Source of the DNA: a candidate division FCPU426 bacterium
GTDB lineage: Bacteria > Oederibacteriota > Muellerivitia > Muellerivitales > Muellerivitaceae
Assembly (NCBI GenBank): GCA_963796105.1
Contig: CAWCKJ010000003.1
Coordinates: 320,001 to 384,000, forward strand
Direction: 5' to 3'
DNA length: 64,000 bases
The notes under the pieces were generated by a model that made no database searches, had not been told where the DNA came from, and was given only the letters and a program-made list of their open reading frames with translations. Below, piece by piece: positions 42,647-58,111 of the stretch (the first letter of the stretch is position 1; each line of letters starts with the position of its first letter). Position numbers and translations under genes: made by a program.

Positions 42647-45600
42647 ATGAAGCCCGCCGTTATTCGTATTCGAAAATATCTTTCCATTTTATTGTGGCTC
42701 GTTACGGTTTATCCCGCCTCGGCTGATCTCGAATTCGGCAATAACAAAGTTAGATACCACACACATCACCATTGGAAAATTTTAGAAAGCCAGCATTTTG
42801 ATGTTTATTATTACAAAGAATGCGAAGCTTTTGCCCAAACGGCGGTTCAATACGCTGAAAATGCATTTGTTAAAACCTGTAAAATTTTCGACTACGTTCC
42901 CATTGAAAAAATCCCCATTTTTCTATATGGAACAGGATTGGAATTCCAGGAAACAAATATCACTCCCGAAATTCTATCTGAAGGTGTTGGCGGTTTTACT
43001 GAGATTTTCAAAAACAGAATATCTGTCCCGATAAATGGCTCCTACTTCGAATTCGAAAAAGTTTTACACCATGAATTGACTCACGCTTTTCAATACGATC
43101 TTATTTACGGTGAAAGCTGGAGGTCCATAAATTTATTCAAATCAATCCTGGTACCAACCTGGATGATGGAAGGAATGGCGGAATGGAACGCTCAGCACAC
43201 TGATTCCCAGGGTGAAATGGTTTTAAGGGACGCAATATTGAATGACCAAGTATTGCCCTTAAGCATGCTTGAATCCTTTGACCATTTTCAACAAGTCTAT
43301 ATGGCCTACAAGGAATCCCAGAGCATTTTGGACTATGTCTCACAGGTTTATGGACCTAAGATGGTTGTCCAAATATTCAAAAAAATGGCTGTCAATCAAT
43401 CACCTGATAACGCCGTCAAAAATACTATCGGCATATCCCTTGATGAACTTTATGAAAATTGGCATTTTTTCATGAAAAGTCAAACTTGGTCAAGAATCAA
43501 TGGGCTTCCTAAACCCGAGAAATACGGGGAACTATTCGAGAAAGGAGTCTCTAAGTCATCGGTTTCTCCCGATGAAAGTAATATCGCTTACATCAACGGA
43601 GAGGATCTTGTTCTATATAACTTTACCGTCAAGAATAAGAGCGTTATCGCTCATAAAAATTTTGAGATTCAAGGATCGGGAGTTGCTTGGTCACCCGATG
43701 GAAATCATCTGGCATTTTCAGCGGCAGTCAACGGTGAATATAAACTTTTCTCGTTTGAGATCAAAACCCATGAAAGTCACGAACTCAATACGCCTGGTTT
43801 GCCTGTCGTTTATTCTCCCTCCTGGTCCCCCGACCAAAAATATATCGTTTTTTCGGGTTTCGATTATTCAACAGTTGATCTTTACAGACTCGAATTATCC
43901 TCCGGCCACTTGGAACGACTTACTGACAATTTGACCACAAAATCTTGGCCTTCCTATTCTTCCGATGGAAAATCAATTTATTTCCTAGGCGAAGATTCAG
44001 GTGAGACGAATATTTATAGGCAACCGTTAAGCGATAATGGACTTCCAAAAGGAACCCCTGAGATCGTCGGGAAAGACCTAGGAACTATTTCCTCCTTTCA
44101 GGTTTTAAACAATTCTATCTATTTCACCTCAAATCGAGATAACAGGATATTCAATCTTTTCAAAATGAATTTGGACGGTCAATTCCTCACCCAATTGACA
44201 AATACTTATGTTGATATTTTAAGTTTCAATTTAATGCCGGATAAAAATGTATTCGCAACCCTTTATCAACATGCCCAGGTCAGTTTGTATTCCCTTCAAT
44301 TCGAAAAAATGGATCAAAATACCCAACCAACCGTCAATTTAAAATATCTGGCTAATTCATTCGACGGTGCCTCTAAAATCATTGCGACAGTCCCTAAACC
44401 CGATTCGACAAAAAAAGATGAATTCAAGGACAAAAACGACCTGACCGCTTTAGAGACTAACCACAATAAAAAAGAACCAGAAAAAACGCCGGCCCGTATA
44501 ACGCATTTAGAAGTGACTGATTCCTCCAATATTGTCCAACTTCAATGGCCTGTCACCATTGATGAGGGATCCCCGGAAATTGACAGCTATCATGTTTATA
44601 AATCGACTGATTCCGGAAATCACTTTTATTTACTCGGATCCACCCCCAATTCTAAAGAGGGAAAATATACGGATTACTATGCCCGTCGTGGCGAGACTTA
44701 CCAATATTACGTGACCGCAATAAACAAAATGGGGGAAAGCCTTCCTTCTCCTGTCGTGAAGGCGACTCCAGCGTTCAATCTTTCATCCAAGGATTATCAA
44801 TTTAATTTTTCCCCGGACATTCTTTTGCTTTTAGCGGGTTACGACAGTTCCGCCGGATTTGTCGGAGGAGGCATCGCACAAATGAGCGATTATCTCGGAG
44901 ATAATCGTTTAAGTCTCATAGGGGACACTGTCCCTGGGGTTGAAACGGGTATTCAAACAAACTACGAATTTTCCGCTTGGAGAACCACATTAGATCTTGA
45001 TTACTATTATTATCAGAACTATTTGAATATTTACGATCTTCAAACCGGGAACATTGTGAATGAGTATCGGAACAACGAAAATGGAATGGATATTAAATTA
45101 AGTTATCCATTGGATGCATCCCTGCGTTTCGAATATGGAATCGGGACTCAACGATTCCAGGGAAATCCATTGTATTTACAATTTTCCGAGGGAATATCCA
45201 ATTATTCTCAAAATCAAGACCAATGGAACGTTGCGAATTACTACCGCTTGTCGTTGGTGGGGGATAAAAGAAAAGGGGAAGAATTTTCGCCCAGTAGCGG
45301 ATATGCCTTCAATTTTACGCTCTTACACGCTCTTCCCGTCTTAGACTCAAATGTCTCATTCGCGAATATTCTTTTAGAGACTCAAGTATTTGCGAATTTC
45401 AGTTTCTTAAACCATCTTGTTTGGGCGAATCGTTTCATTGGCATGTCATCGCAAGGGCCCAATCCTCAATCATTTTTCATAGGGGAGGATGTACTCTTTC
45501 AAGCTTTTTTTACAACCATCAGGGGCTACGGAAATAATACCTATTTTGGCAGTAATTTAGCACTATGGAATACTGAACTTAGATATCCGATCTCGACTAA

Positions 45601-45859
45601 TATGAATTTTTTATTGCAACCCTTGTCTTTTATCATGATTAAGGATATCGAACTTGCTGGTTTTGCGGACAATGGCGTAGTGAATAACCAGTTACAAAAG
45701 ATTTCAAATTCGCCGCTTTTGTCAAGTATTGGGGCGGGATTGCGTTTTTATACCTTTCTTTATCAAAGGGCCCTTGTAATGCTTCGGTTTGATGTCGCAT
45801 GGCGCTTGGACGGGCCATTTCCGCCAACCTTTCATTTTAATTTGACCCCGATTTTTTGA
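42647..45859 (+). CDS. Outer-membrane protein: HExxH metallopeptidase-like + PD40 propeller + FN3-like + Omp85/BamA-type barrel
   Basis: Signal peptide, HHELTH...PTWMMEGMAEW, WSPDG repeats, 'VQLQW...YYVTAINKMGES', IRGY motif, C-terminal Phe. Confidence 0.8.
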   Translation: MKPAVIRIRKYLSILLWLVTVYPASADLEFGNNKVRYHTHHHWKILESQHFDVYYYKECEAFAQTAVQYAENAFVKTCKIFDYVPIEKIPIFLYGTGLEFQETNITPEILSEGVGGFTEIFKNRISVPINGSYFEFEKVLHHELTHAFQYDLIYGESWRSINLFKSILVPTWMMEGMAEWNAQHTDSQGEMVLRDAILNDQVLPLSMLESFDHFQQVYMAYKESQSILDYVSQVYGPKMVVQIFKKMAVNQSPDNAVKNTIGISLDELYENWHFFMKSQTWSRINGLPKPEKYGELFEKGVSKSSVSPDESNIAYINGEDLVLYNFTVKNKSVIAHKNFEIQGSGVAWSPDGNHLAFSAAVNGEYKLFSFEIKTHESHELNTPGLPVVYSPSWSPDQKYIVFSGFDYSTVDLYRLELSSGHLERLTDNLTTKSWPSYSSDGKSIYFLGEDSGETNIYRQPLSDNGLPKGTPEIVGKDLGTISSFQVLNNSIYFTSNRDNRIFNLFKMNLDGQFLTQLTNTYVDILSFNLMPDKNVFATLYQHAQVSLYSLQFEKMDQNTQPTVNLKYLANSFDGASKIIATVPKPDSTKKDEFKDKNDLTALETNHNKKEPEKTPARITHLEVTDSSNIVQLQWPVTIDEGSPEIDSYHVYKSTDSGNHFYLLGSTPNSKEGKYTDYYARRGETYQYYVTAINKMGESLPSPVVKATPAFNLSSKDYQFNFSPDILLLLAGYDSSAGFVGGGIAQMSDYLGDNRLSLIGDTVPGVETGIQTNYEFSAWRTTLDLDYYYYQNYLNIYDLQTGNIVNEYRNNENGMDIKLSYPLDASLRFEYGIGTQRFQGNPLYLQFSEGISNYSQNQDQWNVANYYRLSLVGDKRKGEEFSPSSGYAFNFTLLHALPVLDSNVSFANILLETQVFANFSFLNHLVWANRFIGMSSQGPNPQSFFIGEDVLFQAFFTTIRGYGNNTYFGSNLALWNTELRYPISTNMNFLLQPLSFIMIKDIELAGFADNGVVNNQLQKISNSPLLSSIGAGLRFYTFLYQRALVMLRFDVAWRLDGPFPPTFHFNLTPIF

Positions 45860-45874
45860 TGTTTATTCCTATTA

Positions 45875-47518
45875 CCTGAATTTTGCACCGAGTTTACCGA
45901 TTCCGTGGCCAGATCGGCCTGAATCGGGACCCGACAGTGGCCATTTTCATCAGAAGTGAACTTATGTGCAAAGAATTTTTTGCACCAAGCCACTTCTAGG
46001 CCGCCCTGGGTCTTTCCAATCGTTTTCGATCAAGGTATTTGAGGAAACCCAATAGGCCCGCTGTCCTATCATCATGGATTGAATACCTCACCACATCCCG
46101 ATGGCCGTGATACTGGATTCGGGCGGCTACAAAGAGCATCTTCAAACGTGCGATCCGAAGGGTATGGTCCGGCATGGTGATCTGTTCCTTCTCCTGTGGC
46201 TTCTTTCCCGGTCGCTTTTCTTTTCCACAATGGCCCACCATTAGTTTCATCCACCTCCAGAGGTTGTAAGCCAGCATCACGATCTGGAAAAAAGCATGGT
46301 GGCTTTGGAAACTCTTAGAGGGAATTGCTAATAACCCCTCCCGTTGCGCCTCACCAATCAGGTTTTCCACATCCGCGCGCAGGTCGTATTCCTCAACCAC
46401 CCGATGGGGTGCTCCCAGACAGTTGGTCGCGAAGATTCGGTAGACATATCCTTCCATTTCAGGAAGGCTCAATTGTTTCTCCCGCGCTTTTTCATCCAGC
46501 GTCCTCATCGCCACAAACCGGACTGGTTGTTGCCAGCCTATGGGTTGATGGACACATTCGTTGTATTCGTGTTCTCCATGGCGGTACCAACCCTTTTTCG
46601 TGAAAGGCGGGTCATGCCGCTTGTTCCCGAAGATGAAAGAAAACCCTTCTTTTTCACAGGCTTTCACGCTTTCCCAGCCGATCATTTCACCGTCACCGCG
46701 CACCAGAATCGTCCGGACACAGGACGGCAAGAGTCGCCGGAATTGTCTAATTTGGCGGGCCACTTCCTCAGAACTAAGGGTGGTTCCGCGTCTTTGGGTT
46801 CCGCACAAATATTCCCGGGTTTCCTGGAGAAAACACAGAATGGGCCTCAGTCCCTTCTTGCCCCGGTGCTTGGGGTTGTATCCTTTTCGGCTTCCCTCGA
46901 TATTTCCGTAGACCGTTGCGGTGGTGGTATCGATGTTGATCTCCACCTTCTTGGGGGCATATTTCACCTGTCCCCAAACCTTGGCCCGTAACGCCCCACT
47001 CAGATTCAGCAACGATGCCGACTGCCCGATCCCCAGCGACCTCAGGTATCTCCAAAAAGTTGTCACTACCGGCAACAAGGGAACCCGCAGTAAACCGCAC
47101 AGCATGACCTCACCCCGCAGGTAGGCAAAATGGCCAAGTCTTTGGAACCCGATGAAAAGAAGCATTAGGATGCCGCTTACCATCCGGTAGTGGCCCAAAT
47201 TCGGAAGGCGTTTAGGTGCGGCATAGTGTTTTTTGAATTCCCGCTCAAAATCAAGAAGGTCGAACATCTTCGCCAATGCCAACAATCCGCCAAAAGCTGT
47301 TAGGCGGTCTTCGCAAATACCTACGGGAGTATTGGCCGTAATCTTGGGCGCGATTCTCCCGTTTCGATTGGCTTTTTTCTGGACTTGCGGGTTTGATTTC
47401 TGAGGCGTATCTTGACGTTTCACCATCTGGGGGACCCTCTTTTAGGATGAGTTGGCTTCGCAACCCTTATCCTATAATGGTTTCCTAGATGGTTTTTTTA
47501 TTAGGCGCAAAATTCAGG
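45875..47518 (-). mobile_element. Insertion sequence, IS1380 family
   Basis: Terminal inverted repeats CCTGAATTTTGCACC / CCTGAATTTTGCGCC (14 of 15 match); 5-bp target duplication TATTA at 45870-45874 and 47519-47523. Confidence 0.92.
45996..47426 (-). CDS. IS1380-family DDE transposase
   Basis: LTAFGGL, NIDTT..TVYG..EG...GYN, VRGD, Y..RADVENLIGE, AYNL. Confidence 0.92.
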   Translation of the reverse strand: MVKRQDTPQKSNPQVQKKANRNGRIAPKITANTPVGICEDRLTAFGGLLALAKMFDLLDFEREFKKHYAAPKRLPNLGHYRMVSGILMLLFIGFQRLGHFAYLRGEVMLCGLLRVPLLPVVTTFWRYLRSLGIGQSASLLNLSGALRAKVWGQVKYAPKKVEINIDTTTATVYGNIEGSRKGYNPKHRGKKGLRPILCFLQETREYLCGTQRRGTTLSSEEVARQIRQFRRLLPSCVRTILVRGDGEMIGWESVKACEKEGFSFIFGNKRHDPPFTKKGWYRHGEHEYNECVHQPIGWQQPVRFVAMRTLDEKAREKQLSLPEMEGYVYRIFATNCLGAPHRVVEEYDLRADVENLIGEAQREGLLAIPSKSFQSHHAFFQIVMLAYNLWRWMKLMVGHCGKEKRPGKKPQEKEQITMPDHTLRIARLKMLFVAARIQYHGHRDVVRYSIHDDRTAGLLGFLKYLDRKRLERPRAA

Positions 47519-47664
47519 TATTAAATAAAAACAAGTTGGTTCAATAGTAGGGAATCGTTATAATGTTTTCGAAAATCGAATTGAACTCTTGATGTTTGAG
47601 TTTTATAGCTATTTAAAGAAAAGATTTATGTTTTTGGACATTCCTTAAATTCAGAGGTTAATCC

Positions 47665-48288
47665 GTGAAAAAATTTTCCATGTTTTTGCTTCTATTAGGG
47701 TTTTTATTTTCTCCTCTTATAGCGAATGTTTTAAGTTCGAAATTCAACATATCGGATTATGAAATTGTAGATTTGGAGTTCTTGAGGACTCATTACCCTG
47801 AAATCAATAACGGGCGCTCCATCCAAATCGACGCCAACTTTTTAAGTTTGAAATGGAAATCGCCATTTGAATACAGGGAGCGCTTGAAGGAAATTGGGTT
47901 GGATGTAAATAAATACAACATAGTTGAATTCAATTTAAAAGAAAAAGATGACGTCCATTACTCTTTTCCGAATCTACTTTTCCACACTGATGCGGGCGAC
48001 TTGAATGAATTGAATAACCTCGTGAAAGGCGAAAGAGTCGTTGTTTATGGGAAATTTTATAAAGTGAAAAAGTCTGAATTCATCATTGACGTGGATTTAA
48101 TCGAGGTGATTCAAAAAGGCGGGCATAGTCGAAGCTTTCTGCTAGATGCGAGAGTATCGCCAACTCCCACCTATGTGCCCACTTTGACCCCGACCCCAGG
48201 TCTAAACATATGGCAGAAATTAGGTAATTTTGTAAATCCCAAGGAAACACCAACAGTCACTGGTACAGTAACTCCAACGGCTCAATAA
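47665..48288 (+). CDS. Hypothetical secreted protein with Pro/Thr-rich tail
   Basis: GAGG RBS, GTG start, signal peptide, 'LVKGERVVVYGKF' (OB-fold-like), PTPT repeats. Confidence 0.7.
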   Translation: MKKFSMFLLLLGFLFSPLIANVLSSKFNISDYEIVDLEFLRTHYPEINNGRSIQIDANFLSLKWKSPFEYRERLKEIGLDVNKYNIVEFNLKEKDDVHYSFPNLLFHTDAGDLNELNNLVKGERVVVYGKFYKVKKSEFIIDVDLIEVIQKGGHSRSFLLDARVSPTPTYVPTLTPTPGLNIWQKLGNFVNPKETPTVTGTVTPTAQ

Positions 48289-48878
48289 GAATTACTTTTT
48301 AAAACCACGCGATCCTCATATCTTTTATTATTTCACTCAATCTTTATATCGTTTTTTAATTTGTTTTCTTTCATAGCTTGTTGAGAACCGACTCAGTTGT
48401 TGCATATTCATAACACCAACCATTAATAAACCCCAAAACAACTCTTGGAACCAATCCTCGCACCATAAAGTAAAACTTTAACTGTTTTAAAAGGGTTAAA
48501 TATCTTTGAAATAATGCGCAAGATGCGGGGAACAATAGCCCCCTTCCTAAAAAATATTAATGAAAAAAATTTTTTCTTATAAAAGGGAACAGCTGTTGGT
48601 AATTTAGAGTCTGAGAATATCATTTTCATAATCTTTCTAAGGTGTATTTAGCGATTCATGGTTGTCGTAAAAGTATCTTATCTTTTAATAATCGTTTAAA
48701 AGAACGGCGTTTAAATGCAAAAACAAGTCATTTTTAAGCTTTTGTTTTGCACGGAAGGGGGCTCGGTTAAAAACGGATTGTCGTCGTTCGGATCCGAGCT
48801 GATAAATAAGGATTTAGGATTCGAGGAGTAATGCGAACGAGTGGATTTTAAAAGATTTTCCTACACAAAGAGCCCCAG

Positions 48879-49841
48879 TCAAGACTTCCTTTTCCAAGAG
48901 CGGAATTTTTTTAAAATTTCGACCACCCCGTTATTTTTCCTGAGATTCAAGTTGTGGTATTTGAATTGCCTTTCGAAAGCTTTTTGGTGTGCCCGAATCG
49001 ACTTCGTGGAAGCCAATTTGACGTAATTCTCGCTGACCACAATGCTGGAGTGACCCATTAAATCCCGGATTTCATAAACACTTGCCCCGGATTCAGCCAA
49101 TTGAGTCCCGAAGGAATGCCTTAAAACATGAACCGTCAGTTCATTTGGATTTTCAATCTTGGCCCATTGAGCCGCTTTTTTAACCCAGGTCTCCAGGTAA
49201 TCCGGGTGAATGGGTTTCTCAGGGTTTCGAGGACTTGGAAAAAGATAAGAGCGGGTTTGTTTTGAATTTTCGAGGTAAAGTTTTATTCGATCCTTTAGGA
49301 ATTCGGTCATCGGAACCGTGCGTTCTTTATCGCCTTTGCCAATGACAGTTATCAAGCCACGGGTTAAATCCAAATCACGGATTCTCAAATGGACAATTTC
49401 CGAAACCCGAAAGCCGCAATGATAGCCCAACAAGACCGCCAGGCTGATTTTCTGATCCTCTAAACCCTCCCACATAAGGGCTCCGACCAGTTTATCGCGC
49501 TCCGCCGACGATAGGGGCCTGGGATTTCGCTGCGGGCTTCTGATGGCGAGGTTGTGAAAGACTGCCGTTGGATCAGTAGCGATAAGTTGGATGGAGGCAA
49601 GATAGCGGTAAAAGGATCGAGTGGAGGCCAATATGCGCTTCATGGTTCGAGTGGAATAGGCCTTACGGAGTTTACCCCCGGGTGTGAGGCCGGGTTTGGT
49701 CAAGGAGGCGGCAAAACGTACCATCTGCTCAGGTTGCGCATACAATGGCGTCGTGATATTCGTAAGGTCGAAAAATTGTTTTAGGACCCGGAGATCCTGA
49801 TGATAATTTTCCAAGGTGTGGGATGATTTGCATAGGGACAA
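48879..49841 (-). CDS. Xer-type tyrosine recombinase (true start probably further upstream)
   Basis: Catalytic set present: GFRVSE, GKGDKER, HVLRH, MGHS, ENY. N-terminal 'HTLENYHQDL' SAM-like domain. Frame stays open about 40 codons upstream of the TTG. Confidence 0.92.
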   Translation of the reverse strand: MSLCKSSHTLENYHQDLRVLKQFFDLTNITTPLYAQPEQMVRFAASLTKPGLTPGGKLRKAYSTRTMKRILASTRSFYRYLASIQLIATDPTAVFHNLAIRSPQRNPRPLSSAERDKLVGALMWEGLEDQKISLAVLLGYHCGFRVSEIVHLRIRDLDLTRGLITVIGKGDKERTVPMTEFLKDRIKLYLENSKQTRSYLFPSPRNPEKPIHPDYLETWVKKAAQWAKIENPNELTVHVLRHSFGTQLAESGASVYEIRDLMGHSSIVVSENYVKLASTKSIRAHQKAFERQFKYHNLNLRKNNGVVEILKKFRSWKRKS

Positions 49842-49918
49842 GAAGCCATCGTAGGGCTTTAATTCCAGAAGATTCTGGGACTGGTTTTTCGTTTGTGGAC
49901 TGATGGAAGCTCTCCAAT

Positions 49919-49946
49919 TTTCGGTATAACTGTAATTATACCGAAT
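49919..49946. other. dif-like recombination site
   Basis: TTTCGGTATAA-CTGTAA-TTATACCGAAT: 11+6+11 layout with 10-bp perfect inverted arms, directly upstream of the Xer-type gene. Confidence 0.75.
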
Positions 49947-49962
49947 TTTAGTATGGCTTCAA
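49935..49962 (-). promoter_or_regulatory. Putative sigma70 promoter of the recombinase, overlapping the dif-like site
   Basis: Minus strand TTGAAG-N16-TATAAT. Confidence 0.5.
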
Positions 49963-50211
49963 TAGAATTTTAGACCTGATTTAACCCCATAATCTTTTTC
50001 CCGTTGATCAAGTTAAACCGGGCTAGGCTCCATGTTCTTTTGACCCAATTGAAATTTTAACGACGGTTGCAAAATATTTATTTCTTCTCTTAAATCCAGG
50101 AGTCTTTACTTCCACCACGGGTCAAATTGAGTCGATTTTGCATTTAAAGGCTGTTTAATTCGACGAAAGTTTACATGGGTTCTTGGAATACCACCTTTAC
50201 TCAGATGGTTT

Positions 50212-50982
50212 TCAAACGAACTCATCCAGGATTTTTTGAAATCGCTCGGGATTCTCCAGCGGGATCAAGTGCCCAACATGCTCCAAGACCTGAATCCGGC
50301 TTGAGGGTATGGCTTTGGCAAGGGATTCAGCCTCAGCGACAGGAACCAGGGTGTCTTCTTGGCCCGCTAAGATGCATACTGGCGTTTTCAATTCAGACAT
50401 TAAGTCATTTTGATCCAGTCTGACGGCCATGGCCCTCTGGGCCAACGCGATAGCGGCAGGATCAGTCATTTGTATCCATTCCCGCAAGCGTTCCGCAACT
50501 TCTGGTTTATCAGACAAAGTCGTCCTGCCTAAAAGGCCTGGAACCATTGTGGATTTTAGAAATTCGACCCCTTCTTTGTTAACTCTTTCAGCCATTTTCA
50601 ATCGGTATTGCTTGGCATCTTGCCGGTCTATACCTGGTCTCGTGGATATAAAAAGAATTTTGACAACCTTGGAAGGGAACTGGCGGATAAATTCCATTGC
50701 CCAGTAACCACCCATGGAAATGCCGCCAAGGATTATTGGCTCAACAATTCCCTTCTCCCATAGGTGTTTTTCAAGTCCTTGAGCGGCTTGAGCCAGCGTT
50801 AACTCTTTGTTTGCTAATGGTGTAACGCCAAATCCTGGAAAGTCCGGCAAAATCAATTGATAACCGCTGGGCGCCTTGAAATCTTCCCACATCAAGTGGG
50901 AAAGCGGAAATGCGTGTAAAAGAACGACGGGTCTTCCCTTTCCCTTGGTGATGGATAATATGGTCGGGATCACTTTAAACAA
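50212..50982 (-). CDS. Alpha/beta-fold hydrolase
   Basis: LLHAFP, PDFPGFG, GISMGG, ED, GH triad motifs. Confidence 0.9.
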   Translation of the reverse strand: MFKVIPTILSITKGKGRPVVLLHAFPLSHLMWEDFKAPSGYQLILPDFPGFGVTPLANKELTLAQAAQGLEKHLWEKGIVEPIILGGISMGGYWAMEFIRQFPSKVVKILFISTRPGIDRQDAKQYRLKMAERVNKEGVEFLKSTMVPGLLGRTTLSDKPEVAERLREWIQMTDPAAIALAQRAMAVRLDQNDLMSELKTPVCILAGQEDTLVPVAEAESLAKAIPSSRIQVLEHVGHLIPLENPERFQKILDEFV

Positions 50983-51122
50983 TACCTCTGAAGATTTATG
51001 TGTTTGCTTCCAAGCCTCCCAACCATCTCTTTAACTGCTAAAGCTATAGATGGACAGTATATCTGTGAGTAGTTACTTTCTAGCGCATTATACTTTAAAG
51101 TTGAAATTTTCGTCTGCAAAGC

Positions 51123-52739
51123 TTATTCGTTCCGGCGTCTTAAAACCTTACCCGGAAATCTACCCGTAAATGCGCCTTTTTCAAAAACTGGTTGTCCATT
51201 CACCAGGACCATATTGATGCCTTTGGGAGGTTCCCAAGGGGAAACAGCTGTCGCCTTGTCCCCGATGGTGTTGTAATTAAACACCACAATATCGCCCCAA
51301 TATCCCTCTTGAATTATCCCCCGGTCGCTCAGTCCCAATAGTTTTGCCGGTTCCTGGGTGAGACGATTGATAGCCTCAGAAAGCCGAATAATCCTCTTGG
51401 CCCTGACATAGGTTCCCAAAAGCCTTGGAAAGGAACCCACATCCCTGGGATGAGGAATCGATCCGGAGGAATCAGACCCAAAAAGGATATAGGGTGACTG
51501 GATTTTCTTGATGAGACCCTCTTCTGAAAGTCCATGGTAGCAAATTTTAACGTCGGGACCGTTTTCCAGAAGCAACGCCAATACGGCGCGCTCCTCGGTC
51601 AGTTTCCGTTGTTTAGCCAATTCCTTAAGCGTCAAACCAAGGGCGCTTTGGGAATCCCGAGCGTAAACGCGCGTAATCTCGATTTTATCCCCTCCGCCGT
51701 ATTCCAGGAGGCGCCGGCGGATAGAAGCTAAAACATCCTCGGTCTTGGCCTGGTAAAGATAGTAATCCCACCGGGTGGCTTCTTGTGGGAGGTAAAGAAA
51801 CTGGTAAAGCGGAATTTGAACCTCGTTGCCCCAAAAATCATAGGGATAAACCGTCGCGAAAACGTCATAACCCTCCCCCCTTGCGTCTTCAATCAATTTT
51901 AAACCACTCTCCGTTTGATCCCAGTTGCTCGGTAGCTTGAATAACAAATGCTGGATCACGACGGGAATTTGATCCGTTTTGGCCACATGGATGGCTTCCC
52001 GGATGGCTTCCAAGACATTGGATCGATAGTTCCGGATATGGGTGTAATAGACGGAATGGGGGTAATGGGACAGGATCGAGGTCAATTGTTCCAATTCGGA
52101 GGGCTGGCACCACAACCCCGGCTCGTAGCCTAAACCGCTTGAGAGCCCGAAAGCGCCCGCTTGGAGGGCCCCCTCCACAAAACTTTTCATTCGGCGCATG
52201 TCAGCGGCGCCGGCAGGTTTTTCCCGTTTTTTCCGGATGAACCAATCCCTCACGCTTCCCTGCCCGATGAGGGTTCCAACGTTTAAGAGTCCCCTGTGCT
52301 TTTCGAGTTTTTTCAGGTTTTTTTGGACGTCCAAAATGGAAAATCCGCAATTCCCAGCGAGCCCGGAAGTCACCCCCTCCCTTATGGCGTTTTCCTGCTC
52401 TTGAAGGGTCCAAAGCAGGTCATTGTGGCAGAGTATGTCAATGAACCCGGGGGCGACCACCAGCCCTTCCACATTCACCGAACGTTCGGCCTCATACGAG
52501 CCTAGATCGCCGATTTTTGAAATTTTCCCGTCCGATATCCCCACATCCGCCTTAAAGGGCGGTTTTCCTGTTCCGTCCACCACCAGCCCGTTTTTCAGGA
52601 CCAAATCAAAATGTGGATTTTCGGCCCCGGCTGGGAAAAAACAAAGCACGAGGGTTATATTTAAGTAAATTATGAAATTTTTCAAAACCAACCTCATGAT
52701 TGATTTGGCCTCGAAAGTATAAATTCGCGGGCCTTCCAC
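51123..52739 (-). CDS. N-acyl-D-amino-acid deacylase family amidohydrolase
   Basis: VVDGTG, APGFID, GNCG, LSSGLGY, HIRN, GSD, HPR..GSFPR; start may be ATG at 52697. Confidence 0.88.
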   Translation of the reverse strand: MEGPRIYTFEAKSIMRLVLKNFIIYLNITLVLCFFPAGAENPHFDLVLKNGLVVDGTGKPPFKADVGISDGKISKIGDLGSYEAERSVNVEGLVVAPGFIDILCHNDLLWTLQEQENAIREGVTSGLAGNCGFSILDVQKNLKKLEKHRGLLNVGTLIGQGSVRDWFIRKKREKPAGAADMRRMKSFVEGALQAGAFGLSSGLGYEPGLWCQPSELEQLTSILSHYPHSVYYTHIRNYRSNVLEAIREAIHVAKTDQIPVVIQHLLFKLPSNWDQTESGLKLIEDARGEGYDVFATVYPYDFWGNEVQIPLYQFLYLPQEATRWDYYLYQAKTEDVLASIRRRLLEYGGGDKIEITRVYARDSQSALGLTLKELAKQRKLTEERAVLALLLENGPDVKICYHGLSEEGLIKKIQSPYILFGSDSSGSIPHPRDVGSFPRLLGTYVRAKRIIRLSEAINRLTQEPAKLLGLSDRGIIQEGYWGDIVVFNYNTIGDKATAVSPWEPPKGINMVLVNGQPVFEKGAFTGRFPGKVLRRRNE

Positions 52740-52771
52740 TTCAATAAAACCGGGTGGATGGAAACCTTGAT

Positions 52772-54229
52772 TTATCCTTTTTTAAGAACCGAAAGGAAAC
52801 CCCCGTCATGGGTCCGGGTGGGCCAAAAGACCAAGCCGTCCTCGCAGGACGAAATCCCGTTTGGCTCCGCCGGGGTATTTAAAGCAAGAGCCTGGTATTC
52901 GGGATGGCATTTCCGGAATGCCCCGATCACTTCCTGGTTTTCCTCGTTTTCCAATGAACAGGTGCTGTAAGCCAGGAGTCCCTTTGGATAAAGGTGTTCC
53001 TGGACCTGTTCCAGAAGCCTCGTTTGCTGGGGAGCCTGTTCCAGGATGTCTTTGGGCCTCAAACGCCAGCGGAGGTCGGCCCTTCGGGATAAGACCCCGG
53101 TCCCGCTGCAGGGGGCATCCACCCAAATCAGGTCGAATTTTTGGGACGGTGAAAGTTTTTCAGCGGCCCCCTCATGAATGAAAATCTGCCTTAAGCCCAC
53201 CCTTTTCAGATTTTCCGAAAGAAGTTTTAAACGCACAGGGGAAGGCTCGCTGGCTAGGATTTGCCCCTTCTCCCCCGCCTTCCAGGCCAAACTGATGGTC
53301 TTTCCGCCGGGAGCCGCGCAGACATCCCAAACCTTCATGCCGGAAGACAGGGGGACCATCTCCAGCATGGCCTGCGGGACCCAGTCCTGGATGATCCATT
53401 CCCCCTTTTGGAAGCTTGTTCCTGAAAACAACCCTCCCTCATGTTCCTTCAAAACAAGCGCCTGGGGAGGCCAATCCATCGGGGCCACATTTGTTTTTTT
53501 GGCCCGCAAGTCCGCAATGACATTTTCCCTAGTCCCCGGTTTGGTGTGGAAATAAACGGGGTGGGGGTGGTTGTCCGCCTCCAATACCTCCTCCAGTTTC
53601 CCGCGGTCCAATTTCTCGGCCCACTTTTTCACAAGCCAAGTGGGGTGGGAATACCTCAAGGATAAAGTGTCCAATTCGCTGTCGCCCTGGATGGCAAAAT
53701 CCTTCCCCTTGGTTTCAGCGGCGCGCAAGACCGCGTTCACAAAACCGCTCAGGGCCGCGTGCTCATGGACCTTCACCAGGTTCACGGACTCGTGAACGGC
53801 GGCCCAGGCCGGCACCCGGTCCAGGAACATCAGCTGGTACAATCCCATCCGCAGTGAAACCCTCACCTCCACCGGGAGTTTCGCAAAAGGCGACTGGCAA
53901 AGTTGGCCCAAATGGTAATCCAAAAGCCGCGTCTGCCGGGTGACGCCGTAGACCAACTCCCTCATCAAAGCCGTGTCCTCGGGCTTCAGGTTCAATTGGC
54001 TTTCAAGGACATCGGAGACTTTCGCGCCCTTATCGATTTTTGAGAGGGCCTTAGCCGCCTCTAATCGCGACGGCGAGATTTCTATTTTCCCCCCCGCGCG
54101 GGATTGAGAAGGGCGCCTGGCGAATTTTTGATCCTGGCCGCGGGAGGCCTTCTTTTGAAAAGGCCGGTTGGGGGGGCGCCCATATCGGGGTTTTGGACTT
54201 CCGGTTGGGTTTTTGGGGGGCTCGGTCAT
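52772..54229 (-). CDS. rsmB: 16S rRNA m5C967 methyltransferase
   Basis: NusB-like N-domain, CAAPGGKT, DAPCSGTG, YSTCS; def-fmt-rsmB synteny. Confidence 0.95.
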   Translation of the reverse strand: MTEPPKNPTGSPKPRYGRPPNRPFQKKASRGQDQKFARRPSQSRAGGKIEISPSRLEAAKALSKIDKGAKVSDVLESQLNLKPEDTALMRELVYGVTRQTRLLDYHLGQLCQSPFAKLPVEVRVSLRMGLYQLMFLDRVPAWAAVHESVNLVKVHEHAALSGFVNAVLRAAETKGKDFAIQGDSELDTLSLRYSHPTWLVKKWAEKLDRGKLEEVLEADNHPHPVYFHTKPGTRENVIADLRAKKTNVAPMDWPPQALVLKEHEGGLFSGTSFQKGEWIIQDWVPQAMLEMVPLSSGMKVWDVCAAPGGKTISLAWKAGEKGQILASEPSPVRLKLLSENLKRVGLRQIFIHEGAAEKLSPSQKFDLIWVDAPCSGTGVLSRRADLRWRLRPKDILEQAPQQTRLLEQVQEHLYPKGLLAYSTCSLENEENQEVIGAFRKCHPEYQALALNTPAEPNGISSCEDGLVFWPTRTHDGGFLSVLKKG

Positions 54230-55173
54230 GAAAGAATTTCGCCAGGCTTGAAGTCGGGATGTCCCAGGGTGAAATCAAAAGCGCTCATTTTACGCTTTCC
54301 CGGGGGCTGGATGTCGCGGATCAAGACTTTTCCCTTGCCGGCGGAGATCTCGATCCCCTCATGGCTGACCCTTAAAACCTCTCCCGGCATTTTCCCGGCG
54401 GGCTTCCCCTCCGCGTCCGAGGCGGAATGCACCCTTAATTGCGTTTCCCTCCATTGGGTCTCAGCCACGGGCCAGGGTGAAAGGCCCCGGATCTTGTTCA
54501 CGATCTCCGCGGAGGATGAATCCCACTTGATCCTGCACTGTTCCCGCTTGAGGCTGGGCGCGTAGCTGGCTTTCGAATGATCCTGCGGAATTCTAGGGGC
54601 CTTACCCTGGCCCAAAAGCGCCAGCGCCTCTTGCAGGCCTTCCGCTCCCAAAAGGGCCAAACGGTCATGAACCTCCCCGGTCGTCTCCTCGGGGCCAATC
54701 CCTGTTTTCCTCGTCAAAAGGATATCCCCCTCATCCATTTTTTCGTTCATGTACATAATGGTGACGCCTGTTTCCTTCTCCCCCACCATGACGGCGTAAT
54801 GAATGGGGGCCGCCCCCCGGTATTGGGGCAAGATCGAGCCGTGGACGTTCAAACAAGCGACCCTTGGAATTCGCAAGACCGCCTGGGGCAAAATTTGGCC
54901 GTAAGCCGCCACGACGGTAAAGTCGGGTTGGACAACCCGCAGGGTTTCGATGGATTCAGGAAACTTGATTTTCTCCGGCTGAAAAACGCTCAAGCCCAAA
55001 CCCTGGGCGGCCTCCTTGACGGGGGAGGTTTTTAACTCCAATCCCCTCCCCGCGGGACGGTCCGGTTGAGTGACCACCAATGGGATTTCATATCCAATCC
55101 TGTGAAGCGTTTGAAGGGCTGGTACCGCGAAATCGGATGTGCCCAAGAATAAAATTCGACCAAGTGATGTCAT
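54226..55173 (-). CDS. fmt: Methionyl-tRNA formyltransferase
   Basis: TQPDRPAGRG, NVHGSILPQYRGAAPI. Confidence 0.97.
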   Translation of the reverse strand: MTSLGRILFLGTSDFAVPALQTLHRIGYEIPLVVTQPDRPAGRGLELKTSPVKEAAQGLGLSVFQPEKIKFPESIETLRVVQPDFTVVAAYGQILPQAVLRIPRVACLNVHGSILPQYRGAAPIHYAVMVGEKETGVTIMYMNEKMDEGDILLTRKTGIGPEETTGEVHDRLALLGAEGLQEALALLGQGKAPRIPQDHSKASYAPSLKREQCRIKWDSSSAEIVNKIRGLSPWPVAETQWRETQLRVHSASDAEGKPAGKMPGEVLRVSHEGIEISAGKGKVLIRDIQPPGKRKMSAFDFTLGHPDFKPGEILS

Positions 55174-55283
55174 ATTGAACCCTGACCCAGAATGAACGGC
55201 GGATGATTCGCGAGGAGGATATTAAAACATGGAAATGCTTTTTTTTCAGGGTTGTTTATCGGGGCGGCGGGAAAAATGGCTGG

Positions 55284-55808
55284 TTACAAACTCACTGTTT
55301 CCTTGTAATTCCTCTTGAGCTGATCCAGCTGTTTTTTAAGGAACAGGCGCTTGATGGCGGGTATTTTCTGGATGAAAAGCCTGCCGTCCATATGGTCGAT
55401 TTCGTGGAGGACACAACGGGCCAGGAGACCCTGGAACTCGTAAGTTTGCCAGGAACCATCCAAAGTTTGGCCCTTTACTTGAACCTTCAATGATCTTTCC
55501 ACTTCCTCCCGGATATCCGGGATGGACAAGCACCCTTCCTCGATGGTCTCGGAACCTTCCTCGGACAACACCTCCGGATTGCATAGGACGAGGGATTCCC
55601 CTCGGTCTTCCAACTCGTAATGCGCATCCATTACCATCATTCGGATGAGTTCACCGACCTGGACCGCCGCCAGGCCGATCCCATTTGCTTGCCGCATGGT
55701 TTCAGTCATATCCCGAGCTAATTCCCTCAACTCAGAGCCGAAAACCGTAACGGGCTGGCTCATGTTTTTGAGGACCGGATTCGGGTAAATGACGATGGGA
55801 CGGATCAA
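55284..55808 (-). CDS. def: Peptide deformylase
   Basis: GIGLAA.Q, EGCLS, HEIDH. Confidence 0.97.
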   Translation of the reverse strand: MIRPIVIYPNPVLKNMSQPVTVFGSELRELARDMTETMRQANGIGLAAVQVGELIRMMVMDAHYELEDRGESLVLCNPEVLSEEGSETIEEGCLSIPDIREEVERSLKVQVKGQTLDGSWQTYEFQGLLARCVLHEIDHMDGRLFIQKIPAIKRLFLKKQLDQLKRNYKETVSL

Positions 55809-55907
55809 TTTCGCCTCTTCAATTTCATGATGATTTAAAAATTATAAGGAAAAAACATCTTGAAACTCAAGGGGTTTGGAAAAACCGGTCGCATGGCGAA
55901 TGACGGC

Positions 55908-56561
55908 TTATTCAAGCGGGAACGCCGTCATCCTTTTCTTTAATTCAGCCGCCGCAAGGCGAGGGTTATCCGCGTCGCAAATCGCCCGAACCACCGCGAT
56001 CCTCCGGCACCCGGCCCCAAGCACCTCGTCGAGATTGGTCAAATCGATTCCGCCTATGGCGAAGAACGGGAGGGAGGTCCTCATGGAGGCCAATTGCCGG
56101 ATATATTCCACGGAAACGGCCTTTCCTTCAGGCTTGGTCGGCGTGGCGTAAATGGGGCCCACCCCGATGTAATCAGCCCCGTGAGCCGTGGCCATACAGG
56201 CCTGGTCTGGGGCATGGGTGGAAACACCGACCAGTTTGCCGGGTCCAAGGATTTTGCGGGCGTCCAGGACCGATAAATCCTCCTGTCCGAGATGGACCCC
56301 ATCCGCGTCCGAAAGCGCCGCTATTTCAGGCCGGTTGTTCACTATGAAAAGCGCGCCGTATTGACGGGTAATTTCCCGGAATTCATGGGCCATCTTCAGG
56401 AGAACCGCGTCCTTGACGGAATAATCCCTCAGTTGCACGATATCCACGCCTCCCATTAAGGCCTCTTCCACCAAACGGTAAGCGGTCCCTTCGCCGGATG
56501 AAATCCCGCCCGCGACTAGGAACAAGCGCGCTTTCGCGAGGGCCTTCGCCGGATCGCTCAT
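55908..56561 (-). CDS. thiE: Thiamine-phosphate synthase
   Basis: VQLR, DGVHLGQED, STH, GPIYATPTK, AIGGI. Confidence 0.95.
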   Translation of the reverse strand: MSDPAKALAKARLFLVAGGISSGEGTAYRLVEEALMGGVDIVQLRDYSVKDAVLLKMAHEFREITRQYGALFIVNNRPEIAALSDADGVHLGQEDLSVLDARKILGPGKLVGVSTHAPDQACMATAHGADYIGVGPIYATPTKPEGKAVSVEYIRQLASMRTSLPFFAIGGIDLTNLDEVLGAGCRRIAVVRAICDADNPRLAAAELKKRMTAFPLE

Positions 56562-57163: not shown

Positions 57164-58111
57164 CTATCGTTTGTTCAAAAGGACATCGGGTCGTCCGAAT
57201 ACAATTCCCTTCTCGATGGTCACGCGGGGCCATTTTCTCTCAATCCATGGCCCGATGAAATAACAGCATAAACCTACCCCCAAACCAGCCAGGACATCAA
57301 CGAAATAATGGTACCTTCCGTATATGGTCCCAAAAAACAGGGAAAGAATCATCAAGAAGACGAAAAACCGCCATTTTTTCAAATAAGGAAAGGCCATGCA
57401 GCAAATGATGGACGCAGCGATATGGGAACTGGGAAAGGACCCTCCTGGAAAGGCGTTGTTTTCCATGGTCATTTGAAGCCAATCGGAAATCCAATAGCCC
57501 TTAAGGGATTCCCTGAGGCCCGGCATGTAAAACCGGGGGCTCTCGGCCGGGAGGAGGATAAATAAAAAATAATGCAAAAAATAGGTGAAGCACAGGGTAA
57601 ACATGAATGCCCTGAAAACACTCCTGGGCGCTTTTAAATAAATCACGATGGAGGAAAGCGGCAGCAGGATGAAATAAAAACTGTAACCCATGCTGAAAAT
57701 CTCGTTCATAAGCCGATAGGGGGAATAAAACTGCTGGAAATTCCAAATCGAGGGTCCGATTCGGCCCAGTTGGTAATCCCACTTGACGAGCCTCTCATCC
57801 AGCGTCCAATCGAAATAAAGGTGAATCAAATTGCCCATTTCGCGGTAGAAATAAATGATGAGAACCAGGGGATAAACATGCCGTAAAAATTGGGTGACCG
57901 GCTCCTGGGTGTTCCGGAGGGCCCAAAGGGCGCCGATCAGAAACAGGGAAAACAAGACATGATAGCTGATGAGCCGGCTCTTGAGCTCCGTGGATAGGTT
58001 GCCCCCCGCGATCAGGATCGAAAGGACGATTTGATAAACCAGGATCAAGGAATCGACCGAGTTGATCCATGTTTCCTCCTGCCTGGGGTTGTGACGCGTT
58101 TTGGGGTTCAT
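57164..58111 (-). CDS. PAP2-superfamily membrane phosphoesterase
   Basis: PAESPR, FPSSH, RYHYFVDVLAG; multiple TM segments. Confidence 0.88.
   Translation of the reverse strand: MNPKTRHNPRQEETWINSVDSLILVYQIVLSILIAGGNLSTELKSRLISYHVLFSLFLIGALWALRNTQEPVTQFLRHVYPLVLIIYFYREMGNLIHLYFDWTLDERLVKWDYQLGRIGPSIWNFQQFYSPYRLMNEIFSMGYSFYFILLPLSSIVIYLKAPRSVFRAFMFTLCFTYFLHYFLFILLPAESPRFYMPGLRESLKGYWISDWLQMTMENNAFPGGSFPSSHIAASIICCMAFPYLKKWRFFVFLMILSLFFGTIYGRYHYFVDVLAGLGVGLCCYFIGPWIERKWPRVTIEKGIVFGRPDVLLNKR

Follow-up and report, generated by a model that had tools for sequence, protein, structure and literature searches.

By analyzing a window of DNA (the whole stretch of 64,000 nucleotides, on contig C3 of what we call the window genome), we found a Xer-type tyrosine recombinase gene and, adjoining it in non-coding DNA, a 28-bp symmetric dif-type site, TTTCGGTATAA-CTGTAA-TTATACCGAAT. 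The features of the locus are as follows.

45856..48879, no strand: gene-orientation convergence zone (replichore junction), which holds an IS1380 transposase
45996-47426: IS1380-family transposase (170 bits against a cut-off of 180), 1.45 kb from the 3' end of the recombinase gene
48879..49904, minus strand: Xer-type tyrosine recombinase gene, 341 aa if the start is the in-frame ATC at 49904-49902 (inferred)
48879-49841, minus strand: the ORF finder's version of the same gene, with a TTG start at 49841, 320 aa
49023..49409, minus strand: catalytic residues R 49407-49409, K 49335-49337, H 49128-49130, R 49119-49121, H 49050-49052 and Y 49023-49025
49200..49202, minus strand: codon of Asp235 (H-P-D-Y motif), predicted arm-specificity residue
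49910..49915, minus strand: predicted ribosome-binding site GGAGAG, 5 nt before the ATC
49919..49946, no strand: 28-bp site, made of an arm (49919-49929), the spacer CTGTAA (49930-49935) and an arm (49936-49946)
49935..49940, minus strand: predicted -10 box TATAAT, formed by the inner arm and the first spacer base (10/12 consensus match)
49957..49962, minus strand: predicted -35 box TTGAAG, 16 bp upstream of the -10 box
50212..50982, minus strand: alpha/beta hydrolase gene, the upstream neighbour, outside the module

A preliminary description of this DNA had claimed a symmetric 11+6+11 site with a CTGTAA centre upstream of a Xer-type gene, and such a site occupies 49919-49946, 10 of the 11 arm positions being complementary. 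The features that define a dif site (an inverted repeat of about 28 bp with 11-bp arms and a 6-bp centre, non-coding and in single copy) were all found here: allowing up to six mismatches, the genome (4.98 Mb, 96.8% complete) holds no further match save the site's own reverse complement. Sites of such symmetry are also not expected by chance, with one observed and none in 100 order-3 Markov simulations of the window. By using a matrix built from 27 other loci (see below), we obtained the 28-bp site as the best match, at 36.2 bits. A terminator-like prediction fell on the site, which we read as a by-product of the palindrome, and Rfam gave no match in 44000-56000.

The recombinase ORF contains the Pfam domains PF00589 and PF02899. 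The full catalytic set claimed for it was borne out, since R-K-H-R-H-Y is intact and invariant among 38 aligned homologues; the protein is thus a simple tyrosine recombinase with the R-K-H-R-H/W-Y set, vertically kept, as a Xer protein is defined. The site had been placed less than 80 bp upstream of the gene's start. This holds for the annotated TTG at 49841, which is 77 bp away, but because the homologues are conserved upstream of that TTG (NLLELKPYDGF), the true start should lie nearer the site. We found the reading frame open up to 49958, and the start is probably the ATC at 49904, only 14 bp from the site: the N-terminus read from it, SPQTKNQSQNLLELKPY, resembles those of the homologues, and the +14 spacing agrees with relatives whose starts (+12 to +14) have a ribosome-binding site, the spacing that, together with the sequence itself, underlies our prediction of GGAGAG. 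Among 28 distinct loci (L031-L058), 13 have an ATG 0-4 nt after the arm and no ribosome-binding site, 10 start at +12 to +14 downstream of a GGAG-type motif, and in 3 the first in-frame ATG lies within the right arm.

The same stretch could be read differently, that is, with the order-wide system real and the window genome's own copy damaged or misassembled at its 5' end. Speaking for this, no in-frame ATG, GTG or TTG occurs in the window copy between the site and the conserved N-terminus, a TTG 1 nt past the site (the spacing of many relatives) is shifted out of frame by one base across an A-run, and the database gene call on the contig is just a 198-aa fragment (P0071). Yet the in-frame ATC at +14 behind GGAGAG fits the second start layout of the relatives, the remainder of the gene is intact and SPQTKNQSQNLLELKPY is like the homologues' N-termini, so that we consider a damaged copy unlikely. 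The one DNA sequencing run that bears on the gene (9% of words) covers 218 bp within it, with the 5' end outside, and no RNA run is listed as carrying the sequence.

Then, we asked how far gene and site are conserved. An orthologue at 57-75% identity was present in 29 of 30 family relatives and in the one sister-family genome; the sole family genome without a match is 63% complete, and other families gave only matches of about 30% identity. That same incomplete genome carries a divergent member of the wider clade, apparently without the catalytic motifs (G014:C145, L384:2325-3284). After setting aside two loci without upstream DNA, merging seven duplicates and taking the best 28-mer within 180 bp, we found a symmetric 11-6-11 site just upstream of the orthologue in all 28 distinct loci and in two later genomes, hence in 30 of 30 genomes with upstream DNA, which answers positively the check on conservation that the preliminary description had proposed. 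A consensus pattern matches exactly once in 26 of 32 genomes of the order, always beside the recombinase gene; as it was derived from these same sites, only the copy number is informative. Outside the order it matches in 3 of 67 genomes (2 of 67 for the control), one of these matches being fully palindromic in a genome with canonical XerCD (G072:C16:8993-9016), which is at chance level. The hydrolase gene upstream stays next to the module in 25 of 29 relative loci, so the module occupies a fixed chromosomal place. A metagenome scan added at least one true orthologue among the 80 loci listed.

Several observations place the site at the replication terminus. First, gene strands flip around it, as had been claimed: on contig C3, 203 of 239 genes are on the plus strand to its left and 254 of 339 on the minus strand to its right. 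The cumulative peak of gene orientation lies 4.1 kb from the site in the window genome and 2.3-2.7 kb from it in four relatives (one of them from the sister family; stretches of 270-400 kb), hence within 2.3-4.1 kb in five of five genomes, all unclosed, and dnaA is found on contig C4 at the matching divergence of gene direction. Second, the motif GGGGAAG, chosen on the window genome, where it is skewed also in head-on genes and intergenic DNA, points to the site from both sides in four of four relatives (plus/minus counts of 53/6, 45/11, 11/2 and 12/4 on the left and of 9/54, 5/42, 0/4 and 3/38 on the right), while canonical KOPS, GGGNAGGG, is weakly polar in the window genome. Third, the cumulative GC skew peak is 19-30 kb from the site in three of five genomes, which we took as agreeing with the terminus, and far from it in the other two (143 kb in the window genome and 185 kb in G002); in the window genome the skew is too weak for placing a terminus. 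Regarding mobile elements, no phage structural or ICE genes were found among the 13 neighbouring ORFs scanned against PHROGs, in line with the preliminary description, which had left the IS1380 transposase unmentioned; besides this transposase, the scan matched three housekeeping enzymes and, for the SppA-like gene, an S49 protease. The palindrome of 28 bp probably serves as dif for this chromosome.

We then looked for XerC, XerD and a canonical dif. The recombinase scored far below the curated cut-offs (156.9 bits against 335 for XerC, TIGR02224; 147.7 against 330 for XerD, TIGR02225). XerD was above cut-off in none of 17 family genomes and XerC in none of 18 near-complete genomes of the order, compared with 20 of 42 phylum genomes outside it, 38 of which have two Xer matches of at least 260 bits. 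In two genomes, G024 (94% complete) and G031 (97%), the recombinase orthologue is the only match to the XerC model. A canonical dif pattern was found in 34 of the 42 genomes outside the order, where identical dif cores recur; since the reversed control also matched in 23 of 42, only these recurring identical sites count there. Within the order, the pattern matched in 3 of 18 genomes, the same as the control, with non-dif left arms, and the match in G004 lies 155 kb from the convergence. Thus, the check proposed in the preliminary description gave no XerC or XerD above cut-off in the order and dif matches at control level: canonical XerC/XerD and a terminus-type dif were not found within the order. 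The gene had been called lone, which is right for its surroundings; the window genome as a whole has 36 PF00589 matches, though none is a canonical XerC or XerD by curated cut-off. FtsK with alpha and gamma domains is present in the window genome, and FtsK gamma in 17 of 17 genomes.

Adjacent XerCD-like gene pairs of 194-265 bits occur in 5 of 18 genomes of the order; the pair of the window genome was inspected and the other four, all in genomes of the family, were judged from coordinates. This pair (G000:C8:198644-200624; L001, L002) reaches 231-252 bits on the XerC/XerD models, above the module recombinase. By ORF reading, it follows a primase-like gene and very large secreted-looking ORFs near a contig end, and in the tree it groups with tandem or fused pairs of mobile type. 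Fused two-domain recombinases of 600-870 aa also number about 40 among the profile matches.

To place the recombinase, we ran a profile search over 1.84 billion representatives and built two trees. Both trees place the family in a clade of unnamed recombinases on a long stem, distinct from XerC/D (SH-aLRT 100 in the quick tree). In the main tree, 10 long-branched or redundant rows were dropped and 44 left, and an AU test on 28 of the 44 rejected descent from the phylum's own XerC or XerD (p-AU of 1e-39 and 2e-60). The protein phylogeny called for in the preliminary description thus sets the family apart from XerC/D; the tree is without XerS, XerH and named XerA sequences (XerA-like rows were assigned by best model), and XerS and XerH were set apart by profile and structure-match scores. 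NCBIfam at 1e-62 gave no model match for the 17 clade members scanned, which rank above the first XerD-like match, and the ESM Atlas returned generic integrase clusters only. Sister proteins P0104-P0114 are 40-44% identical, whereas phage, plasmid and viral collections hold no close relative (best about 33%). One clade member, G010:C20:4425-5355 (L299:3426-4355, minus strand), is an integrase at a prophage edge in a genome of the same family. This prophage encodes a RecE-like exonuclease, an endolysin, a tail and an internal virion protein, with the integrase beside a gene that by ORF reading is murA-like; no symmetric site of at least 9/11 was found near the integrase in the 8 kb examined. 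Since the rest of the phylum has XerCD, the simplest reading is that an incoming module replaced it, and the module likely took the place of XerCD/dif in the order's ancestor, deriving from this clade with its prophage integrases. The tree is unrooted, and the phage-to-host direction is presumed.

Comparison of the sites among relatives indicates how the arms may be read. Arm cells were complementary in 286 of 308 cases, against 217 +/- 9 (maximum 254) when arms were shuffled among loci, a shuffle that ignores kinship. The outer arm bases differ between genera, and both arms change in step. Of 299 protein columns, residue 235 covaries most strongly with arm bases 5-6: D235 goes with GG in at least one arm (13/13), R235 with CA (3/3, three separate changes on the tree), and H or N with TC or AG (12/12). 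A tree-aware sign test of this covariation, with two or three independent pairs, was underpowered (p 0.5). Residue 235 aligns to the Q of XerD RQT, the R of XerC ARN and the K of XerA PKT, the middle positions of the key motifs RQX (XerD), XRX (XerC) and XKX (XerA), which set outer-arm specificity according to excerpts of PMC2958812. There is thus an apparent one-residue code, in which residue 235 would set the match to arm bases 5-6. As for the spacer, its consensus over the 28 loci is YTRYAR, and its ends are non-complementary in 27 of 28, with a polarity that flips seven times on the tree. This fits a crossover region that needs a direction, unlike a plain operator. Each of the three C...A spacers, CTGTAA, CTATAA and CTACAA, when reverse-complemented, gives exactly a T...G spacer that other members have (L031-L058). 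This suggests that the spacer has inverted repeatedly between its symmetric arms, with seven changes on the tree.

The site also overlaps a predicted promoter. The scan for -10/-35 promoters found three where 2.2 were expected, a result that is weak alone. In 24 of the 28 loci, the gene-distal arm and one adjoining base of the spacer spell TATAAT or TATAAC. On the side that matches the sense of the gene, a -35-like hexamer of TTG/TTTA type precedes this box by 16-18 bp in 21 of 28 loci, versus 2 of 28 on the opposite side. With one arm serving as predicted -10 box and the predicted start of transcription falling under the other, we find it quite probable that the bound recombinase represses its own gene. 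The same arrangement of site and promoter was speculated upon for xerS, together with a guarding of dif against inserting elements, in excerpts of PMC1914069.

Together, these data make it very likely, as far as sequence can tell, that the site and the adjacent gene form a one-enzyme module for chromosome dimer resolution in place of XerC/XerD, with the gene likely encoding the sole recombinase that acts on the site. For binding, recombination, FtsK control and self-repression, we infer the following course. One recombinase monomer would bind each 11-bp arm, reading the inner TATAA, while its H-P-D-Y helix would read the outer arm bases. On a chromosome dimer, the two sites would come together in a tetrameric synapse, and the dimer would be split by paired strand exchanges where the 6-bp spacer meets the arms, with the non-palindromic spacer ends setting the direction. 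We lean, with some reserve, towards a role for FtsK in timing the reaction at division, guided by polar, G-rich motifs aimed at the site. Finally, recombinase bound to the arms over the -10 box and transcription start would repress its own gene.

Other readings of the locus were weighed against this module. The palindrome might be an operator only, at which the recombinase represses itself while recombining another site or none. The overlap with a conserved predicted promoter, with its gene-side -35 in 21 of 28 loci, would suit an operator, as would the closeness of the start codon, which in 13 of 28 loci follows the site by 0-4 nt. An operator, though, needs neither a terminus position, found in five of five genomes, nor a fixed 6-bp spacer with kept polarity (27 of 28), and neither the matrix scan nor the canonical dif pattern gave a second chromosomal candidate; we hold this reading to be highly improbable. 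We think just as little of the module being the immobilised integrase and attachment site of an old insertion at the terminus, with dimers resolved otherwise. It is true that the wider clade includes a prophage-edge integrase in the same family and that a site beside its gene is the typical layout of integration modules (excerpts of PMC1914069). Such a relic is hard to reconcile with a single copy at 57-75% identity and intact catalytic residues throughout the order, with an upstream neighbour fixed in 25 of 29 loci, with finding no element genes nearby and no close relative in the phage, plasmid and viral collections, and with the finding that no other Xer candidate is common to all genomes.

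A recombinase that needs a partner, for example the C8 XerCD-like pair or an undetected divergent paralogue, seems to us scarcely credible, even though the C8 pair outscores it on the XerC/XerD models. Such pairs occur in just 5 of 18 genomes of the order, the C8 pair sits near a contig end after a primase-like gene and groups with mobile-type pairs, and G024 and G031 have the module gene as their sole XerC-model match. Moreover, changes in one arm are mirrored in the other, which is what binding by a single protein would lead one to expect.

Four one-enzyme systems, XerS, XerH, XerA and XerL, are described in excerpts of PMC5357621 and PMC9765430. The preliminary description had proposed an undescribed single-Xer system; a single-Xer system is supported by conservation, position, the failure to find XerC/D and the separate clade, but the type itself is already described four times over. 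Our literature search, mostly without subscription papers, gave no account of such a system in this lineage; excerpts of PMC8138268 define a 'Cand' subgroup of Xer-related recombinases from candidate phyla, whose profiles lie outside our comparison.

Like XerS/difSL, the module has one recombinase, a site directly upstream of the gene at the terminus, a CTGTAA centre and a proposed autoregulation (excerpts of PMC1914069 and PMC2965235). Unlike it, the site is 28 bp long with near-perfect TATAA arms, difSL being 31 bp with imperfect GAAAAA-type arms (PMC2965235, in the excerpts), and the protein scores 83.8 bits on the XerS model, for which the cut-off is 267. With archaeal XerA/dif it shares one recombinase and an 11+6+11 site whose arms have TATAA/TTATA cores and few mismatches, if any; excerpts of PMC2958812 give the P. 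abyssi XerA dif as ATTGGATATAA-TCGGCC-TTATATCTAAA and place dif near xerA in Sulfolobales. XerA is also the equal-best solved-structure match (95.6 bits). The differences are a bacterial host with FtsK, P-D-Y in place of the XKX motif (D at the K position), 142.9 bits against the XerA cut-off of 220 and a long branch from the XerA-like rows. XerH/difH too has one recombinase that is often linked to its site, and its 6-bp spacer CTATAA/CTGCAC resembles YTRYAR, but the difH arms are GAAAA-N6-TTTTC (excerpts of PMC2731167) and the XerH match is 32.9 bits (E 3.9e-07) versus 95.8 for XerD. XerL/dif of Legionellales likewise combines one recombinase with perfect-dyad arms at the terminus; by the excerpts of PMC9765430, its arms resemble no known Xer motif, unlike the Xer-like arms here, and xerL is more than 400 kb from dif in L. 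pneumophila. The Coxiella plasmid recombinase, which we infer to be XerL, is 24% identical (E 3e-06), no closer than XerC/D.

With XerC/XerD-dif of E. coli and the rest of the phylum, the module has in common the 11+6+11 layout, ATAA/TTAT cores, the terminus, FtsK and the domain make-up. XerCD, in contrast, comprises two enzymes with asymmetric arms and genes far from dif; neither two paralogues over cut-offs, nor RQX/XRX motifs, nor an asymmetric dif with a TTATGTTAAA arm were found here, and XerD's RQ-QQ FtsK-contact residues (as given in excerpts of PMC5357621) are absent from the recombinase. The preliminary description had called the site a hybrid of XerCD-like arms and a difSL-like spacer. 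The CTGTAA centre given for difSL proved correct (excerpts of PMC2965235), and so did the resemblance of the arms; but the arms are equally near those of the P. abyssi XerA dif, and YTRYAR also covers the CTATAA of difH, so that the likeness does not amount to a recombinant origin.

The system type being known, the finding widens a pattern and does not create a category. Its distinctive value lies in the probable replacement of XerCD throughout the order and in symmetric sites that vary naturally alongside a single residue of the enzyme. A wider question is what keeps a lone Xer enzyme with a symmetric site from recombining without control. Excerpts of PMC5357621 and PMC2965235 describe the XerS and XerH complexes as asymmetric and FtsK-dependent, and XerA as FtsK-independent. 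The order offers 30 natural gene/site pairs of almost perfect symmetry, it has retained FtsK, and a sister lineage keeps XerCD, so that the question of control could be addressed by swaps in E. coli. The apparent one-residue code between the recognition helix and arm bases 5-6 would allow direct predictions of Xer specificity and possibly orthogonal recombinases, and in draft genomes of this uncultured order the site shows where the terminus lies. A bolder picture, which we put forward tentatively and regard as rather doubtful, draws on the fully symmetric arms and on the lack of an XerD-type FtsK contact: the module would be one more Xer lineage of independent origin that works with a single enzyme, domesticated from a clade of phage integrases and replacing XerCD order-wide; it would act in a Cre/loxP-like manner and be checked by self-repression, not by FtsK, its variants being mutually exclusive enzyme/site pairs switched by one residue (D, R or H/N).

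Finally, other recombinase loci of the window genome are worth recording. Contigs C1, C4, C14, C15 and C16 carry adjacent recombinase trios flanked by CATAA-N6-TTATG repeats, which we take to be RIT elements, and C1 and C16 start with near-identical copies. Contig C14 also holds two dif-like sites 417 bp apart (G000:C14:57242-57269 and 57659-57686; L300), with matrix scores of 29.0 and 16.9, adjoining genes for ParA, ParB and a type IV coupling protein. The two sites have different spacers, neither of them that of the chromosomal site; each site is followed by TCTTGACAA, and one has the arms that are paired with an R-type enzyme in other genera. They may be pdif-like sites, or operators, belonging to a conjugative element that relies on the single Xer of its host.
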